Part shown: positions 48 to 5,859 of the stretch, in pieces
Layout: every line of letters starts with the position of its first letter
How positions within the stretch are numbered: position 1 is the stretch's first letter
Source of the DNA: Xylanibacter ruminicola 23
GTDB lineage: Bacteria; Bacteroidota; Bacteroidia; Bacteroidales; Bacteroidaceae
Length of the DNA stretch: 32,000 nucleotides
Assembly: GCF_000025925.1 (NCBI RefSeq)
Contig: NC_014033.1
Location: forward strand, 780,001 to 812,000
Direction: 5' to 3'
Notes under the pieces: generated by a model
Told to the model about the DNA's origin: nothing
What the model saw: the letters and a program-made list of their open reading frames with translations, nothing else
The model's database searches: none
Made by a program: the position numbers and the translations under genes

Positions 48-437
48 ATGAAACAGATTGAAGTAGTTGCAGCGATAATACACGATGAGGCTGGTCGCAT
101 TTTTGCCACGCAGCGAGGATACGGCGATATGAAAGATGGATGGGAGTTTCCTGGGGGCAAAATGGAACCTGGCGAAACGCCCGAAGAATCGTTGAAACGT
201 GAAATTTGGGAAGAGCTGGAAACAAATATCACAGTGGAGCGGTTGGTTAAAACCGTAGAGTGGGATTATCCTAAGTTTCATTTAACTATGCATTGCTTCT
301 GGTGTAGTGTAGTGAGTGGAGCCCTGACGCTTAAAGAGCACGAGGCAGCCCGCTGGCTAACTATAGATCAACTTGATTGTGTAGATTGGTTACCAGCCGA
401 TTTGGTGGTAGTTGAGGACATCAAAAAAGAGGAATGA
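48..437 (+). CDS. NUDIX hydrolase (MutT-like nucleoside triphosphate pyrophosphohydrolase)
   Basis: 129 aa ORF with a clear Nudix box, GGKMEPGETPEESLKREIWEELE (GX5EX7REUXEEXGU pattern). The size is typical of MutT/NudG-like enzymes. Confidence 0.88.
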   Translation: MKQIEVVAAIIHDEAGRIFATQRGYGDMKDGWEFPGGKMEPGETPEESLKREIWEELETNITVERLVKTVEWDYPKFHLTMHCFWCSVVSGALTLKEHEAARWLTIDQLDCVDWLPADLVVVEDIKKEE

Positions 438-491
438 GCATCGCTGCTGATTCCTCTCACTATGATTATATAAATTATGAAAAAACTAATT
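423..491 (-). ncRNA. Candidate short minus-strand transcript (~70 nt) running from the promoter at 498-529 to the repeat hairpin/T-run
   Basis: A -33 TTTG (529-526), a 20-nt spacer and a -7 TACTTTTG (505-498) lie on the minus strand. Downstream are the hairpin at 458-431 and a T6 run. There is no ATG-initiated ORF of meaningful length. It is homologous to the unit at 6245-6421. Confidence 0.3.
431..457. repeat. Left copy of a perfect 27-bp direct repeat (GGAATGAGCATCGCTGCTGATTCCTCT), which is hairpin-forming
   Basis: Identical 27-mer at 6253-6279. It contains the inverted repeat GGAAT-G-AGCA/TGCT-G-ATTCC and overlaps the NUDIX stop codon (TGA 435-437). On the minus strand the hairpin is followed by TTTTTT (428-423). 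Confidence 0.95.
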
Positions 492-497
492 TGGCAG

Positions 498-529
498 CAA
501 AAGTACACTGAATTTTGCAAACCGCCAAA
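498..529 (-). promoter_or_regulatory. Minus-strand promoter (-33 TTTG / 20 nt / -7 TACTTTTG)
   Basis: Reverse complement reads TTTGgcggtttgcaaaattcagtgTACTTTTGctgcc, which has canonical Bacteroides spacing. It is about 70% identical by hand alignment to the promoter at 6390-6421. Confidence 0.5.
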
Positions 530-564
530 AAAATCTGTGTTTTATTTTTCAGGCAGCGAATAAT

Positions 565-608
565 AACAAAAAAATAGGTGAGCATCATAAAAATGCTCAC
601 CCTTTTTT
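565..608. terminator. Bidirectional intrinsic terminator hairpin
   Basis: GGTGAGCAT (577-585), a 7-nt loop and ATGCTCACC (593-601) form a perfect 9-bp stem. T6 follows on the plus strand (603-608) and T7 on the minus strand (complement of the A-run 568-574). Confidence 0.8.
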
Positions 609-753
609 GGGGTAGTGTCGATATGGTCTTGCCCTCTCGGGATTCTGCCCGGATAGTCAAAAAGCACCTTTGGCAAAAAAATAATGGAGTAGTGTCGATA
701 AAGTCTTGCTCCCTCGCGGGATTCTGCCCGGATAGCCAAAGGTTACCTTTTGA
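570..753 (-). ncRNA. Candidate ~180-nt non-coding RNA made of two tandem ~77-nt modules
   Basis: A minus-strand promoter at 760-791 is followed by two repeat units and then the strong terminator at 577-601 plus U-run. The only ATGs in the transcript lie in the terminator loop. Hairpins are preserved between the units despite sequence differences. Confidence 0.45.
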
Positions 754-760
754 CGTTGGC
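609..760. repeat. Tandem direct repeat, 2 units of ~77 bp with a ~45-bp highly conserved core
   Basis: Unit 1 (609-675) reads ggggtagtgtcgatatggtcttgccctctcgggattctgcccggatagtc... Unit 2 (686-760) reads ggagtagtgtcgataaagtcttgctccctcgcgggattctgcccggatagcc... The core GTAGTGTCGATA..GTCTTGC.CCCTC.CGGGATTCTGCCCGGATAG is shared with a few substitutions or indels. Confidence 0.92.
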
Positions 761-791
761 AAATATAGAGAGTTTTTTTGAAAGATCCAAA
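760..791 (-). promoter_or_regulatory. Minus-strand promoter (-33 TTTG / 20 nt / -7 TATATTTG) driving the tandem-repeat transcript
   Basis: Reverse complement of 760-791 reads TTTGgatctttcaaaaaaactctcTATATTTG, a textbook Bacteroides sigma-ABfr promoter geometry. Confidence 0.6.
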
Positions 792-931
792 TGTTTGGTA
801 CATTTTCTAACATAAACTGGCTCTTTTAACATTTTAAAACTAAATTGTGGCTCTATTTTAAATAGAATACTAATTAAAAATGGTGGCATGTTAATGCTAT
901 TATTTTATTTAAATTCTGGTCACAAAATTAG

Positions 932-962: not shown

Positions 963-1211
963 ATGGCTAACAGAAACGTTATTCTCTTACATCTCTTAGA
1001 GTCAGATACTTACGAGTTTTTTGGCTCTCCAGCCTCGCTTTTCGACAAGCACGAGGCCAATGAGTTGCTTATTGCTCAAACCAGTTTGAACAACCATTTC
1101 AGCAAAATGGCTGCTCAGGGTAAAGAGTTGGTATACAGAAACGCCTATTGCGAAATCCGCAAAGGCGAGATTTATGTTAAGCCATCAACACGAGGACGTA
1201 AAAAGTTTTAA
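963..1211 (+). CDS. Small (82 aa) hypothetical protein, possibly DNA-binding (controller- or excisionase-like HTH)
   Basis: The ORF-track frame 888-1211 is trimmed to Met26 (MANRNV...) because the -7 box at 932-939 lies inside the longer ORF. It has a basic C-terminus (STRGRKKF). The segment ELLIAQTSLNNHFSKMAAQGKEL loosely resembles HTH_17/excisionase-type helices. It is the first gene of an R-M operon. Confidence 0.45.
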   Translation: MANRNVILLHLLESDTYEFFGSPASLFDKHEANELLIAQTSLNNHFSKMAAQGKELVYRNAYCEIRKGEIYVKPSTRGRKKF

Positions 1212-1263
1212 ACTAATGTGTGTTTCCTTCCTAAAATGTCGTTTTCAATAATGATTTTATAAT

Positions 1264-2370
1264 ATGGCTAAAAAAGACACAAAAGAAGTAGCTTGTTTCG
1301 TTGAGGGTGTTTTACCAGGTTTATTTGGACAGAAATACTCAAGTCGAGACTATAGATATGAAGATTCATGGGGTAAGAATCAGTTTAATAGCTCATTCCC
1401 AGCCTCGTTAGTTGCTTATATGGGTAGTAAAGGAGTTAACCCTATTTATATTTGTACGAATAAAAAGAATGAAGTTGTTCATAAAACGATCAATACAACA
1501 GATCTGTTTGGCGTTAATCCTTTAGGTGAAGATGCATATTATAATTATGAGGCTGAATATTATCCCTATGAGCAATTTTATTATGCAGCTAAGAAAGAGA
1601 AAATAGATTTGGTAATGATAAATCGTAGTACAGAGGTGGCAGCTAGCGGCTTGGAAGTTAAATTAACTACCCTTCCTGATAATACTACGAAAGATTTGGA
1701 AGAATCTGAATATGGAAGTGAGATTGTTGTAAGGTCTCCTACTATTTTATTTTTGGCTTGCAGTATATGTTCATGCTATAACAGCGAGAAAGGTAAAAAT
1801 AGACTGCATTCGATTTTGAATACAATTGGATCCGAAATAAAAAATTGGAGTGAAATAAGACAGGTACTTCCTCATTATAAAGCTATTTGTAAAGCTATAC
1901 TTGATGTTTCCATAGATTTAAGTAACAAGCAGATTCCTTTAATTATTCAACCGATTTGGAAAACTGATAAGAAATTAAAGGATTTCGCAGATGATTGTCT
2001 TGATGTATTTGTTTGGTCAAATCTTTCTGTTATACAGATGTGTTTAAGAGAGACTAATGCGGATAACGATATTTCACGCAATCAGCGAACAATTATCTGG
2101 CTATATAAGATGCTATGGGACTTTAGTCTATATGGAAGTTTTAATTACACGGGTATCGTTAACGAGCTAGCATATAATTATAAAACAGACAAGGCTTTTT
2201 CTATTAGTGGAAAATTGACAAATCCATTGATGAGATGTCCAGAATTGACAAAGCCTAGAATAAGTAAATATGAAATTAAAAACATCATTTTGGGTGATGG
2301 TCAGAAGCTTCTCAGCCCAGAAAGAAGGTTTGATGCGTTTATTGTAAGTCATCCAGAGTTATTCAAATGA
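1264..2370 (+). CDS. Putative type II restriction endonuclease (PD-(D/E)xK-like), partner of the adjacent C5 methyltransferase
   Basis: 368 aa ORF whose stop overlaps the methyltransferase start (ATGA at 2367-2370). It has a candidate catalytic motif, IDLVM...(13 aa)...GLEVKLT (D...ExK). I recognise no other family. The AT-rich codon usage is shared with its neighbours. Confidence 0.55.
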   Translation: MAKKDTKEVACFVEGVLPGLFGQKYSSRDYRYEDSWGKNQFNSSFPASLVAYMGSKGVNPIYICTNKKNEVVHKTINTTDLFGVNPLGEDAYYNYEAEYYPYEQFYYAAKKEKIDLVMINRSTEVAASGLEVKLTTLPDNTTKDLEESEYGSEIVVRSPTILFLACSICSCYNSEKGKNRLHSILNTIGSEIKNWSEIRQVLPHYKAICKAILDVSIDLSNKQIPLIIQPIWKTDKKLKDFADDCLDVFVWSNLSVIQMCLRETNADNDISRNQRTIIWLYKMLWDFSLYGSFNYTGIVNELAYNYKTDKAFSISGKLTNPLMRCPELTKPRISKYEIKNIILGDGQKLLSPERRFDAFIVSHPELFK

Positions 2371-3713
2371 AAGTAGTTGATTTGTTTTGTGGGTGTGGTG
2401 GCCTAAGTCTTGGCTTCCAGAAAGCAGGATTTAATATTCTTGCTGCTTTTGATAATTGGGATGATGCGATAACGGTGTATCATGCTAATTTTAAGCATCC
2501 TGTAATAAAACAGGATTTGTCAAATGTAGATCAGACTGTAGAAAAAGTAAAAAAATATAAACCTGATATGATAATTGGTGGTCCTCCTTGTCAGGACTTT
2601 TCTTCAGCAGGAAAACGAGACGAAAATAATGGACGTGGTGATCTTACTATAAATTATGCTCAGGTTATTGCTGCTTTAAAACCAGATTGGTTTGTGATGG
2701 AGAATGTAGATCGTATCACCAAAACCGAAAAGTTGGTTGAAGCAAAAACTATTTTTAAGCAGTGTGGTTATGGATTAACGTATGCGATATTAAACGCAAG
2801 TCGTTGTGGTGCACCACAACGTCGCAAACGATTCATAATGATAGGTCATCTGGGCGAAGAAGACGGTTTTATGTCGAATATTCTTGAGTTACGCCAATCT
2901 GATAAAGAAATGACTGTTGCAGATTATTTTGGAAGTCAGCTAGATATTCAGTACTATTATCGCCATCCACGTAGTTATGCTCGAAGAGGTATTTTCAGTG
3001 TAAACGAGCCTAGTCCAACAATTCGTGGAGTCAATCGTCCTATGCCTGCCGGATATCAATTGCATAGTAATGATCCAGTAAAGTCATTAGAAGGAATACG
3101 CCCTCTAACAACATTGGAAAGAAGTATGATACAGACATTCCCCAAAGATTTTAGATTCCTTGGAAATAAGACTAATATGGAACAGATGATTGGCAATGCA
3201 GTTCCTGTTAATTTGGCAAGATACGTGGGTGAATGTATTATGGCTTATTTGGGCAATAATAATCCTGTTAATTACGAACAACTACGAGAGGATTATCCGG
3301 AAAAAATAGTGAATAATTCATCTGTCTCAATTAATCCTGAATTAAAAGTAGATAAGGAGAAGAACGTATTAATAAGTCTTGTGAAAAACGATAATGTAGA
3401 CCTGTTTTTAGACGGTTCTGCACGTATTTATTATACAGGGAAAAAGTTTCCATCAACAGTAGCTTTAAATAAGCTATACTATTTTATGCCATATGTTAAG
3501 CAAAAGGGTATTCGTGATATTTATCTAATAAAAATAGCCAGAGTTGGTTCTAAGCACGAGATACATCCTGATGCAGATGAAAATGATCTACGTTTGGTAT
3601 TCGAGATAGAAAAAATAGGTCAGCTATTTGATGACTACAAACCTGTAGAATTAAAAATTTGGCATACGTTTACGGATACGACTATTAAGAGTGTTTTGTC
3701 TAATAGATTATAG
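2367..3713 (+). CDS. DNA (cytosine-5)-methyltransferase with an extra ~150-aa C-terminal domain of unknown function
   Basis: Motif I is DLFCGCGGLSLGF, motif IV GGPPCQDFSSAG, motif VI ENV, motif VIII QRRKRFIMIG, motif IX TLERSMIQTFPKDFRF and motif X GNAVPVNLA. Residues from about 300 to 448 lie beyond motif X. Confidence 0.94.
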   Translation: MKVVDLFCGCGGLSLGFQKAGFNILAAFDNWDDAITVYHANFKHPVIKQDLSNVDQTVEKVKKYKPDMIIGGPPCQDFSSAGKRDENNGRGDLTINYAQVIAALKPDWFVMENVDRITKTEKLVEAKTIFKQCGYGLTYAILNASRCGAPQRRKRFIMIGHLGEEDGFMSNILELRQSDKEMTVADYFGSQLDIQYYYRHPRSYARRGIFSVNEPSPTIRGVNRPMPAGYQLHSNDPVKSLEGIRPLTTLERSMIQTFPKDFRFLGNKTNMEQMIGNAVPVNLARYVGECIMAYLGNNNPVNYEQLREDYPEKIVNNSSVSINPELKVDKEKNVLISLVKNDNVDLFLDGSARIYYTGKKFPSTVALNKLYYFMPYVKQKGIRDIYLIKIARVGSKHEIHPDADENDLRLVFEIEKIGQLFDDYKPVELKIWHTFTDTTIKSVLSNRL

Positions 3714-3719
3714 AAGCAG

Positions 3720-4328
3720 ATGGTAGCAAAGAGCAAGCAGCAAAGACTCAATGAAGAGATTGCATACGAACTTGACAAGTATCAGGTGATGCTCGAATAT
3801 GGCCGTATGTGTCTCGATGATGATAAAGCGATTCGTAAGAAGTATGCATGGATGAACTATGTCAAGAATGGATGTTTGAGTGGCATGGCTATAGATTTGA
3901 TTATGGCTGGTGCTACTAAACTGATTTCATCAGAGTTTTTTGGGGTATACCTACCATATTTTCTCATTGTCTTTTTCCTGGTGCTAATTATGTATATCTT
4001 CTTTTTTTTCATTCATAGGAAACAAATCGCCAAACTTATTGGCGCAGAAGAGAAGGCAACATTGAAGGAACTGCTTGATAATCTACGCTCCTATCTTCAC
4101 AAGTTAGGTGAGTGGATGAAGGAAGTTGATTGTCATATTGAACAGGAGAAAAGTGTCCTTGATATAATCGAGAAGGAATTGGCTGTTGCAAAGAGCCAGC
4201 AAGCTAAAGAGGTAAATAAACTCAGTGAGATATATGGCAATCTTGATGAAAAAATGGACGATAAAGCCCATCAAATGGCAGAAGAAAGATTAATACAGTA
4301 TAAACGATTTATTTACGATTATGAATAA
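3720..4328 (+). CDS. Two-TM membrane protein with a C-terminal coiled coil (function unknown, possible SLATT-like effector)
   Basis: 202 aa ORF starting 7 nt after the methyltransferase stop. Its hydrophobic segments are GCLSGMAIDLIMAGATKLI and FFGVYLPYFLIVFFLVLIMYIFFFFI. The C-terminal ~100 aa are heptad-rich and charged (KELLDNLRSYLHKLGEWMKEV...). Confidence 0.6.
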   Translation: MVAKSKQQRLNEEIAYELDKYQVMLEYGRMCLDDDKAIRKKYAWMNYVKNGCLSGMAIDLIMAGATKLISSEFFGVYLPYFLIVFFLVLIMYIFFFFIHRKQIAKLIGAEEKATLKELLDNLRSYLHKLGEWMKEVDCHIEQEKSVLDIIEKELAVAKSQQAKEVNKLSEIYGNLDEKMDDKAHQMAEERLIQYKRFIYDYE

Positions 4329-4511
4329 GAATACAAATACACGAGAGCAAGTACCGACACCTACAAATGTCATTACTCCCCAACCCTCGCCATCAGATTC
4401 TTCCTCAACTTCAAGTGGAGGTTCAAACTGAAGAGAGGTGTCAAGTCCGACAACGGTTTGAAGAGATGAGATCTAAGATTTTGGACAGTTGATATTTCAA
4501 AAACTGACAAT

Positions 4512-5339
4512 ATGGATAGACTGGGGTTTATAAAGTTCAATACTCGCTTTTCTACTGAAAAATCAGGAAAGGCGAGCAGTTATGCTCGTGCAATAGCAAT
4601 TTTGGATGATGTCTTGCAGCATCAAAACGAGATTGTTTTTAGTGGTAAGTCACTCTATGAAATATCCGATCCAGACGAGATTGAAAAGATTTTAGATTTT
4701 GTGAATCGAGAAGTTGGGAAATTGAAAAATGGTAAGCCAAACATCTTTGATTACGATAAAAATATACCCCAAAGTTATTTGCTGAAAAATTTTTGTTCAG
4801 CAGCATTGAATAGCTTGATAGAGTATTCTCAATTTGAGACTGCAGAAATTATTGTGGCAGAAGAAACGAATCCTCATCTGATTTCTACGAAATTAATGGC
4901 TCATTATGATATAACAAAGGAAGGTGAAGATGTAATATATGAAGCAAAACGTAGAAAGGGACAGAATTATTTTCGTTTCATGGTGCTTGACAACTATGGC
5001 TCGCGTTGTGCATTAACGGGTATTGATATACCAGAGTTATTGCTGGCTAGTCATATTATACCTTGGTCTGATAAAAAGCATAAAAGTGATCGACTTAATC
5101 CATGTAACGGTATCTGTTTGTCGGCTCTTTATGACAAGGCGTTTGATAAAGGACTGATTACGTTCAAAGACGATCTGACAGCATTATTCTCAAATAAGCT
5201 TGAAGCCAATGTTGGTAAGGAGTATTTTAAGCAATATTTCGAACCCATCAGGAATAAGAAACTTATAACTCCAAGGAAGTATCTTCCTAGTCCAGAATTC
5301 TTGGAATGGCATAGAGATTGTATTTTTAGTAAAGAATAA
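4512..5339 (+). CDS. HNH endonuclease (HNH_2 / COG3440-like, type IV-restriction-like) with an uncharacterised helical N-terminal domain
   Basis: The C-terminal region CALTGIDIPELLLASHIIPWSD...NPCNGICLSALYDKAFDKGLITF matches the HNH_2 signature (His...Asn...). The N-terminal ~150 aa show no motif I recognise. Confidence 0.8.
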   Translation: MDRLGFIKFNTRFSTEKSGKASSYARAIAILDDVLQHQNEIVFSGKSLYEISDPDEIEKILDFVNREVGKLKNGKPNIFDYDKNIPQSYLLKNFCSAALNSLIEYSQFETAEIIVAEETNPHLISTKLMAHYDITKEGEDVIYEAKRRKGQNYFRFMVLDNYGSRCALTGIDIPELLLASHIIPWSDKKHKSDRLNPCNGICLSALYDKAFDKGLITFKDDLTALFSNKLEANVGKEYFKQYFEPIRNKKLITPRKYLPSPEFLEWHRDCIFSKE

Positions 5340-5478: not shown

Positions 5479-5736
5479 TTAGCTTAAAAGAACTAACTTA
5501 TTCTGGCTTATATCATAAGCAATAGGATGGGCGAATGATATACTGTGACCATCGTGGACGCAGGTGGCGTCGATACCTCGACGTTGGAATTCATCCATTA
5601 GGGCTGCGTCGTGATAAGCGCGCATCGAAGTGAAACTTCGAAGATTTATCTGAGAATTGAATACGTTAACTAACTCTGCGATTTGCATATCGGCAAATTG
5701 CAATGCAAACTTGATGTAATAAATGTGCTGTTGCAT
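5479..5736 (-). CDS. Hypothetical protein (85 aa)
   Basis: An ORF with its own upstream -7 box (5860-5867, minus strand) and a downstream hairpin. No family recognised. Confidence 0.4.
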   Translation of the reverse strand: MQQHIYYIKFALQFADMQIAELVNVFNSQINLRSFTSMRAYHDAALMDEFQRRGIDATCVHDGHSISFAHPIAYDISQNKLVLLS

Positions 5737-5859
5737 AACTTAGGATAATTTTGAAGTGAATAATAATGTTGCTTCCACATCGTACCTTGGCCACCGTGAC
5801 ATCCTAATGCTCGGTTGGCGAGTCCGCCATAAAGGCGACTGCTCTTGATGTTTCGGGTG

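Follow-up and report, generated by a model that had tools for sequence, protein, structure and literature searches.

A two-unit structured RNA of Xylanibacter ruminicola 23 belongs to an uncatalogued family linked to a CdiA-CT-like nuclease and is a candidate RNA antidote

Positions 791 to 568 on the minus strand of a 32,000-nt stretch of Xylanibacter ruminicola 23 (NC_014033.1, positions 780,001 to 812,000; hereafter the window) were found to contain a small RNA locus consisting of two homologous units (the dimer), which belongs to a previously uncatalogued RNA family outside Rfam 15. Comparison of its homologues revealed a fold of three helices (P1, P2, and P3), the transcribed strand, and a near-obligatory linkage to a toxin-type PD-(D/E)XK nuclease of about 180 aa, including nuclease domains located in the MuF toxins of phages. 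Based on sequence comparison and a structure model, we hold with moderate confidence that the RNA would be an antidote of this nuclease, i.e., an antitoxin or immunity factor, acting via its structured core in a type III-like manner.

The description of the locus by an earlier sequence-only reading was confirmed, since the promoter, both copies, the terminator with its U7 tail, the ATG-free units, and the lack of an Rfam match were all found on the minus strand as claimed (Table 1). Between 754 and 568, ATGs occur only in the terminator loop and 3' arm, and the strings quoted for its proposed hairpins (CCC-GAGA/GCGA-GGG, AAAGG-UAA-CCUUU, and CGGG-CAGAAU-CCCG) are all present. Transcription is predicted to start at about 755-754. 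A covariance model built from ten gap-free family members matched both unit 1 (685-754, 73.0 bits, E = 3.3e-16) and unit 2 (609-674, 73.5 bits, E = 2.6e-16). No canonical promoter of its own was found upstream of unit 2; the closest -7-like box, TTTTTTTG, has one mismatch to TAnnTTTG and ends in the first G of P1, so that a start from it would fall inside P1. The U-rich spacer between the units was not called as a terminator in a terminator scan and is probably read through; in the L121 paralogue, its U run is interrupted (UUUUUCAAU), with both RNA units being retained. Because no promoter that unit 2 could use was found and the U run between the units is preceded by a weak P3 helix only, we infer one transcript of about 185 nt with two complete units, ending at 568. 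Its terminator was called on both strands and is thus bidirectional.

Table 1. Features of the two-unit RNA locus and of the convergent NUDIX gene, in window coordinates.
Feature	Position	Strand	Details
Promoter, Bacteroidetes-type	760-791	-	-33 TTTG 791-788, 20-nt spacer, -7 TATATTTG 767-760; read directly
RNA unit 1, B-type	754-686	-	P1 754-735; P2 730-717 CGGG/CCCG, loop CAGAAU; P3 712-686 GGAG[CA]AG...CU[A]CUCC
U-rich inter-unit spacer, AUUAUUUUUUU	685-675	-	read directly
RNA unit 2, A-type	674-609	-	P1 674-656, one C.A mismatch; P2 651-638; P3 634-610 GGG[CA]AG...CU[A]CCC
Intrinsic terminator, common to the two-unit transcript	568-602	-	stem 602-576, U7 574-568
NUDIX hydrolase gene	48-437	+	Pfam NUDIX, E = 1.3e-20; convergent with the RNA dimer; part of a duplicated NUDIX-plus-dimer block

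Regarding the tandem repeat that had been claimed, two homologous copies do exist, spaced 77-79 nt and sharing 84-85% identity in a repeat search of the window, and the 19-mer CTATCCGGGCAGAATCCCG occurs exactly twice, compared to 0 expected in 100 shuffles. They do not represent a recent duplication of one unit: the subtypes differ, unit 1 displaying a B-type P3 (GGAG...CUCC, with an extra inserted A-U pair) and unit 2 an A-type P3 (GGG...CCC). Tandem Repeats Finder reported nothing for 400-1000, as expected for only two copies differing by indels. A minimum-free-energy fold of the whole transcript, in which P1 of unit 1 paired with P1 of unit 2, was rejected as an artefact of two homologous hairpins, since single-unit homologues form P1 locally and with covariation.

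Scanning one genome per species with the pattern CCGGGCAGAATCCCGNNAGGG returned 37 stretches, 33 of which are true homologues from rumen and gut Prevotellaceae, Paludibacteraceae, and other Bacteroidales, the remaining four being spurious hits in coding DNA of high GC content. On viral contigs, the core pattern matched only twice, both times by chance inside a phage coding sequence, and BLAST against plasmids produced no match. At all 33 genome loci, a TTTG...TAnnTTTG promoter ends 4-5 nt before P1; the homologues share a highly conserved core with P1, P2, and P3 and have their own terminator of variable sequence, nearly all of the loci being single-unit. A canonical copy with a Bacteroidetes promoter was also noticed on a 1.9-kb contig of a metagenome-assembled genome binned as Methanobrevibacter (L035); this archaeal assignment is probably a binning error. 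At the gathering score of Rfam 15, the sole match in the window was a SAM-I/IV riboswitch elsewhere, with none for the dimer. A search of 400-1000 at E <= 10 gave weak, unrelated matches only, and five further loci, comprising at least nine RNA copies of different subtypes, had no Rfam 15 match at E <= 0.1. Literature searches likewise found no description of the family.

P1 is a helix of 7-8 bp, variable in sequence and length. It corresponds to the second small hairpin of the sequence-only reading, described as differing in sequence with its pairing kept, which indeed showed strong covariation across about 100 homologues. P2 consists of CGGG/CCCG closing a 6-nt loop, and its variants reveal 7-nt loops, a helix rewritten as CCGC/GCGG, or an inserted hairpin of 17-30 nt. 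This pairing had been proposed as an alternative to a CCC-GNRA-GGG hairpin; the compensatory CCGC/GCGG changes and loop insertions of up to about 30 nt identify it as a real helix, but not as an alternative fold, and no evidence for mutually exclusive folds was found. The GNRA hairpin itself had to be abandoned, with 70% of cells paired, no covariation, and 478 of 500 shuffles being as good; it is absent from variants such as L005:7873-7935. P3 has 3-5 bp, a position occupied by C.A, U.G, or C-G, a bulged A, and two more pairs (A-U or G-C, then G-C), and its 12-nt loop carries a conserved AUCG/ACCG motif. Both P3 types described above occur in the family, and many members possess two P3 modules. 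The alternation of C.A, U.G, and C-G at the fourth position of P3 (window 631/613 and 708/690) is compatible with a conserved wobble geometry. The ...CUCCA end of the B-type P3 could be seen as reminiscent of a tRNA acceptor end.

In an alignment anchored on the RNA (A4), 97.7% of the positions expected to pair do so, and 9 of 17 pairs changed on both sides; the corresponding values for an independent alignment anchored on the protein (A6) are 97.1% and 14 of 17, with none of 500 shuffles being as good and slid controls reaching only 40-52% pairing. U.G pairs are frequent in A6 (for example, 34 UG and 26 UA at the second pair of P1), and their abundance fixes the transcribed strand. The earlier proposal of a functional structured RNA on the minus strand is therefore borne out by covariation across the homologues and by the U.G signal.

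As to the protein partner, the RNA is convergent with a nuclease gene of about 180 codons at 16 of the 33 genome loci; fragments of this gene are present at 4 and none at 13, and both the fragment and the nuclease-free loci keep RNAs scoring 66-95 bits. For a view from the opposite side, 80 metagenome loci were picked by the nuclease protein alone, 71 of which have at least 140 nt of downstream sequence. All but one of these 71 carry the RNA on the opposite strand, 28-82 nt past the stop codon (70/71, including L099, at which it was identified by eye), and at the sole locus without it, L077, the nuclease C-terminus is disrupted or replaced. In the cassettes, both genes stand tail-to-tail with a shared bidirectional terminator. 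Toxin-antitoxin pairs are expected to show just this combination of a toxin never found alone and an antidote often found alone. No conserved protein partner adjoins the RNA-nuclease pair; there are only spurious open reading frames (ORFs) over the RNA and lineage-specific neighbors. Furthermore, a B-type P3 goes with proteins ending in YE[RKQ] in 45 of 45 cassettes, across three P2 architectures.

Complementarity between the RNA and the 5' region of the toxin gene showed no excess over shuffles (mean z = -0.15), and the longest complementary run to the coding sequence, terminator overlap excluded, is typically 7-8 nt compared to 7.4 nt for shuffles. Long matches to the coding sequence are due to the physical overlap at the terminator only. 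The toxin mRNA is seemingly nearly leaderless.

The nuclease has largely escaped annotation: none of the 907 clusters of its family in a public collection has a Pfam assignment, the cassette proteins score just under the cut-off of Pfam CdiA_C, with P0128 above it, PADLOC and NCBIfam gave nothing, and a sequence search of the PDB resulted in chance L23 matches only. A confident AlphaFold2 model (pLDDT 87) displays an alpha/beta protein whose best fold match in the PDB by Foldseek is 4g6v_A, the CdiA-CT of Burkholderia pseudomallei 1026b (probability 1.00, E = 7.5e-4), and D86, D99-L-K101, and Q119 show no variation in sets of 23 and of 48 sequences. By this best fold match, the nuclease would have a PD-(D/E)XK fold and be related to the CdiA-CT toxin, for which tRNase activity is known from the literature (PMC5576092). 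The protein is thus presumably toxic. An exhaustive profile search identified 525 nuclease-domain clusters at 50% identity, and most copies are free-standing 180-aa proteins without a delivery domain. Among ten long relatives tested, eight carry the full nuclease domain as the C-terminus of Phage_Mu_F proteins and one, P0125, has it fused to NUDIX; the domain thus occurs as a C-terminal domain behind different N-terminal domains, as polymorphic toxins do.

Seven phage contigs carry a diverged homologue of the RNA, convergent with and directly after the MuF-toxin gene. These phage RNAs display the same succession of promoter, P1, P2, P3, and terminator, the P3 of L134 being a canonical B-type, and the covariance model matches four of the seven at this exact place (E = 0.014-0.54). 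On the two contigs annotated with Pfam (L128 and L131), the order is Mu portal, MuF-toxin, RNA, and next virion gene. Polymorphic toxins normally have a small immunity ORF directly downstream, in 89% of cases for MuF toxins (PMC5576092). The RNA therefore holds the slot of the immunity gene in these toxins.

A complete pair exists just outside of the window. In the source genome (L120, assembly GCA_019973335.1, position 3954 of which is window position 1), a nuclease gene at 3194-3814 ends 140 nt before the window, and its own convergent RNA, having a P2 of the CGCCGC type (3845-3908), ends 46 nt before it. This nuclease with its cognate RNA is located about 0.75 kb from the dimer, which has no toxin gene directly beside it and represents an extra, toxin-less copy. 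The P3 of unit 1 is identical to that of the cognate RNA; in general, the orphan copies match the cognate RNA in the structured core only, their terminators being unrelated. Upstream, a paralogous block (L120 1974-2745), 84% identical to the window block, contains a NUDIX gene and a second two-unit dimer (2003-2709), which amounts to five RNA units within 2.2 kb of the source genome. Both the paralogue and other strains preserve the arrangement as a dimer, their P3 helices having changed in a coordinated way.

That the RNA neutralizes the nuclease is favored by two observations: the toxin is essentially never found without the RNA, intact toxin-less RNAs being common, and in MuF toxins the RNA occupies the immunity slot. 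The neutralization would occur by direct binding of the conserved structured core to the protein rather than by antisense pairing. For this part of the proposal speak the conservation of the core, as opposed to the free variation of the terminator, which is the sole overlap with the toxin mRNA, the finding that complementarity to the 5' region or coding sequence of the toxin does not exceed background, and the constant company of B-type P3 and YE[RKQ] proteins, whatever the type of P2. The dimer of the window may act in trans as spare or broadened immunity, because it combines two specificity subtypes (B-type and A-type P3), one P3 being identical to that of the cognate RNA of the nuclease. 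More tentatively, it is possible that RNA, and not protein, serves as the immunity factor of a polymorphic-toxin nuclease domain, whether this domain is encoded in a free-standing chromosomal cassette or belongs to a MuF toxin packaged in the head of a Mu-like Bacteroidales phage. The window dimer and other toxin-less RNA arrays could then have been acquired as "RNA immunity" to several subtypes of incoming toxin. A mimicry of the toxin's RNA substrate is also conceivable, P3 keeping an isosteric C.A/U.G wobble and its B-type having the ...CUCCA end mentioned above.

Several points weigh against an RNA antidote. A protein dependent on the RNA as its cofactor would produce the same asymmetry between lone RNAs and accompanied toxins, and the match of RNA subtype and protein subtype could reflect joint inheritance of both genes. 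The TM-scores to the fold match are just 0.46 and 0.61, the assignment as a toxin resting on fold plus domain context. Some phage loci have a small ORF after the RNA gene (e.g., L131 3726-3935), possibly encoding a protein immunity factor. Within the window, the gene closest to the dimer in convergent orientation is the NUDIX gene and not a nuclease gene, which keeps a NUDIX-related role in play. The alignments showing covariation were fitted to the model, and their controls were not phylogeny-aware; despite this, the variable-length insertions and rewritten helices are hard to explain without the fold.

If the RNA were instead a required cofactor, scaffold, or sensor of the nuclease, forming a ribonucleoprotein effector, for example in defense, without any inhibition, the 70/71 linkage and a protein never found without its RNA would be predicted as well, and the location of the loci among restriction-modification (R-M) and other variable genes would fit. 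We consider this unlikely, given that intact orphan RNAs are common (13 of 33 loci are nuclease-free, and the source genome has two extra dimers), whereas a cofactor deprived of its enzyme would be expected to decay, except where another locus of the genome supplies that enzyme. Moreover, the RNA contains no hypervariable guide-like segment, its variable P1 being a covarying hairpin, and its slot in MuF toxins is that of an immunity gene. Quite unlikely, in our judgment, is a type I-like control in which the 3' overlap with the toxin mRNA or transcriptional interference would be decisive, with no binding of the protein. The convergent arrangement with a shared bidirectional terminator in every cassette, at 28-82 nt, does resemble the 3'-overlapping type I pairs of Bacillus. 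The overlap is nevertheless confined to a terminator hairpin varying freely between loci, and the conserved part is the structured core, which a cis-antisense RNA has no reason to keep; complementarity to the toxin 5' region or coding sequence is lacking. Orphans, including that of the window, cannot overlap a toxin mRNA, yet keep the core by compensatory changes, and a soluble enzyme of 180 aa stands in the place of a small membrane peptide as the toxin.

A third explanation sees an independent trans-acting small RNA (sRNA), or a NUDIX-associated RNA dealing, for instance, with RNA 5' ends, for which the nuclease would merely be a fellow traveler on mobile DNA. In favor of this, the RNA has a promoter of constitutive type and a terminator of its own and occurs without the nuclease in many genomes; both dimers of the source genome face NUDIX paralogues in convergent orientation, and there is a NUDIX-nuclease fusion. 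This fusion, P0125 (330 aa), has a NUDIX part 80% identical to that of the window and a nuclease domain 63% identical to the neighboring nuclease, and suggests a functional link of NUDIX, nuclease, and RNA in this lineage. NUDIX adjoins the RNA in this lineage only, however, and a linkage of 99% at fixed distance and orientation, in unrelated contexts and in phages, is not hitch-hiking; the best-conserved nucleotides lie in the helices and short loops and not in a long single-stranded seed. We therefore regard this explanation as very unlikely. Most improbable, to the point of being nearly negligible, is that there is no RNA gene here but a small protein gene, a DNA repeat such as an attachment site or insertion sequence end, or a riboswitch-type leader. 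The mechanical ORF list does contain a 112-aa ORF spanning the dimer (475-813, minus strand), which is annotated as a hypothetical protein in public gene calls on two identical contigs (L125 and L127), and an antisense ORF of at least 60 aa, conceivable as a plus-strand immunity gene, can be drawn over the RNA at 16 of the 80 protein-picked loci. The 112-aa ORF was rejected as spurious, its ATG lying upstream of the -33 box and the frame not being conserved in homologues; the antisense ORFs are not conserved either, and such ORFs start at non-ATG codons or upstream of the promoter and are open in a minority of loci. Homologue lengths (63-71 nt, or 78-94 nt with P2 insertions) differ by amounts that are not multiples of three, and the changes are base-pair compensatory and strand-specific, as seen from the U.G pairs; flanking transposase or integrase genes and an inverted-repeat partner are missing. 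The RNA cannot be a leader, because no gene follows on its own strand in the cassettes, the next gene being convergent, and the terminators vary freely, without a conserved alternative pairing as an expression platform.

With regard to known systems, type III toxin-antitoxin systems, defined by neutralization of the toxin by an RNA (PMC8860590), are closest in concept to the proposed RNA antidote, yet the features defining ToxIN do not apply. As in ToxIN, CptIN, and TenpIN, a small structured RNA, and not a protein or antisense pairing, would neutralize a nuclease toxin, and both kinds of loci occur on mobile DNA and in defense contexts. Antitoxins of the ToxIN type are short direct-repeat arrays that precede the toxin gene on its own strand and undergo processing by the toxin, an RNase of the ToxN/AbiQ fold, whereas here a single three-hairpin unit of about 70 nt (two in the window) has its own promoter in convergent orientation, and the toxin is of the PD-(D/E)XK type, not a ToxN/AbiQ-type endoribonuclease, with CdiA_C as the only Pfam result. 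The type I pairs TxpA/RatA and BsrG/SR4 of Bacillus consist of convergent, 3'-overlapping genes. They share with our cassettes the tail-to-tail order of toxin and small RNA genes with overlapping ends, but their toxins are small hydrophobic peptides controlled by extended RNA-mRNA duplexes, in contrast to a protein of about 180 aa and an overlap limited to the terminator.

The toxin itself comes from the world of polymorphic toxins, in which an RNA antidote would break the rule of protein immunity. It has the same protein fold as the CdiA-CT of the CdiA-CT/CdiI pair of strain 1026b, its domain forms the C-terminal toxin of MuF proteins adjoining a Mu-type portal gene, and orphan antidote copies accumulate here as orphan immunity genes do there; the immunity of those systems is a small protein encoded directly downstream, while here a convergent non-coding RNA is present, with no conserved protein partner. 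A precedent is AvcID, a type III-like toxin-antitoxin pair whose toxin is not an RNase, in which a separately transcribed small RNA inhibits a toxic enzyme post-translationally in phage defense (PMC10511110). AvcD is a deoxycytidylate deaminase and not a nuclease, the RNAs are unrelated, and the system is found in Vibrio and other Proteobacteria. FopS and GibS are multicopy sRNAs of Bacteroides of about 65-70 nt with canonical promoters and intrinsic terminators, traits shared by the present family of multicopy Bacteroidota RNAs; FopS begins with a single-stranded seed at the 5' end, ahead of a terminator, acts as a repressor of susC-type mRNAs, and has been deposited in Rfam (PMC11697453). 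An identity with FopS/GibS is excluded by the architecture with a 5' hairpin and three covarying helices and by the lack of an Rfam match; the present RNA is also tied to a nuclease gene.

RNA antidotes acting on toxin proteins are known from few families only, and polymorphic toxins are taken to be neutralized by immunity proteins. If the proposed antidote is real, it would add a large new RNA family, whose partner proteins form 525 clusters at 50% identity and are concentrated in Bacteroidales of the rumen and gut. The nuclease would represent a new fold among the toxins neutralized by RNA, and the phage loci would provide the first MuF toxin with an RNA in place of an immunity ORF. For annotation, it is relevant that a 112-aa "hypothetical protein" is called on the RNA dimer and that the partner nuclease family has no Pfam assignment. 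Consisting of one 180-aa protein and one 70-nt RNA, the system is small and directly testable.

The sequence-only reading had placed the RNA at the edge of an island and suspected a link to the adjacent R-M operon. The edge position holds: in strains L121-L124, the homology to the window ends at about 564, immediately ahead of the terminator, with a different R-M system beyond this point, so that the dimer is situated at the edge of a variable R-M slot. The link to the R-M operon does not, a DNA methylase being near the RNA in only 3 of the 34 loci compared (33 genome loci and the window); the consistent partner is the convergent CdiA-CT-like nuclease outside of the window. In the window, this variable defense slot (963-5339) comes after the RNA and encodes an 82-aa ORF without family, a HindVP endonuclease, a C5 methylase, a 202-aa ORF with weak, sub-threshold family matches only, and an HNH nuclease resembling restriction enzymes that recognize phosphorothioated DNA; the same slot in other strains contains an Eco57I-like enzyme, a methylase, and an AAA_5 protein. 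From about 7000 onward, the window consists of housekeeping DNA, and no tRNA genes were found in it.

The SAM-I/IV riboswitch (5737-5856, minus strand, 45 bits, above the gathering threshold) is located directly upstream of an 84-aa ORF (5479-5736) without a Pfam match. A second textbook promoter was noticed on the minus strand (TTTG 529-526, 20 nt, TACTTTTG 505-498); downstream of it are an AU-rich stretch of about 35 nt and a terminator hairpin with a U run (428-457). This segment, 422-529, would be a candidate for an sRNA of about 70 nt running antisense to the final codons of the NUDIX gene, and its conservation in the paralogous block (L120 2383-2520) amounts to about 95%. With a 5' end resembling P1 of unit 2, it may represent a decayed third unit.

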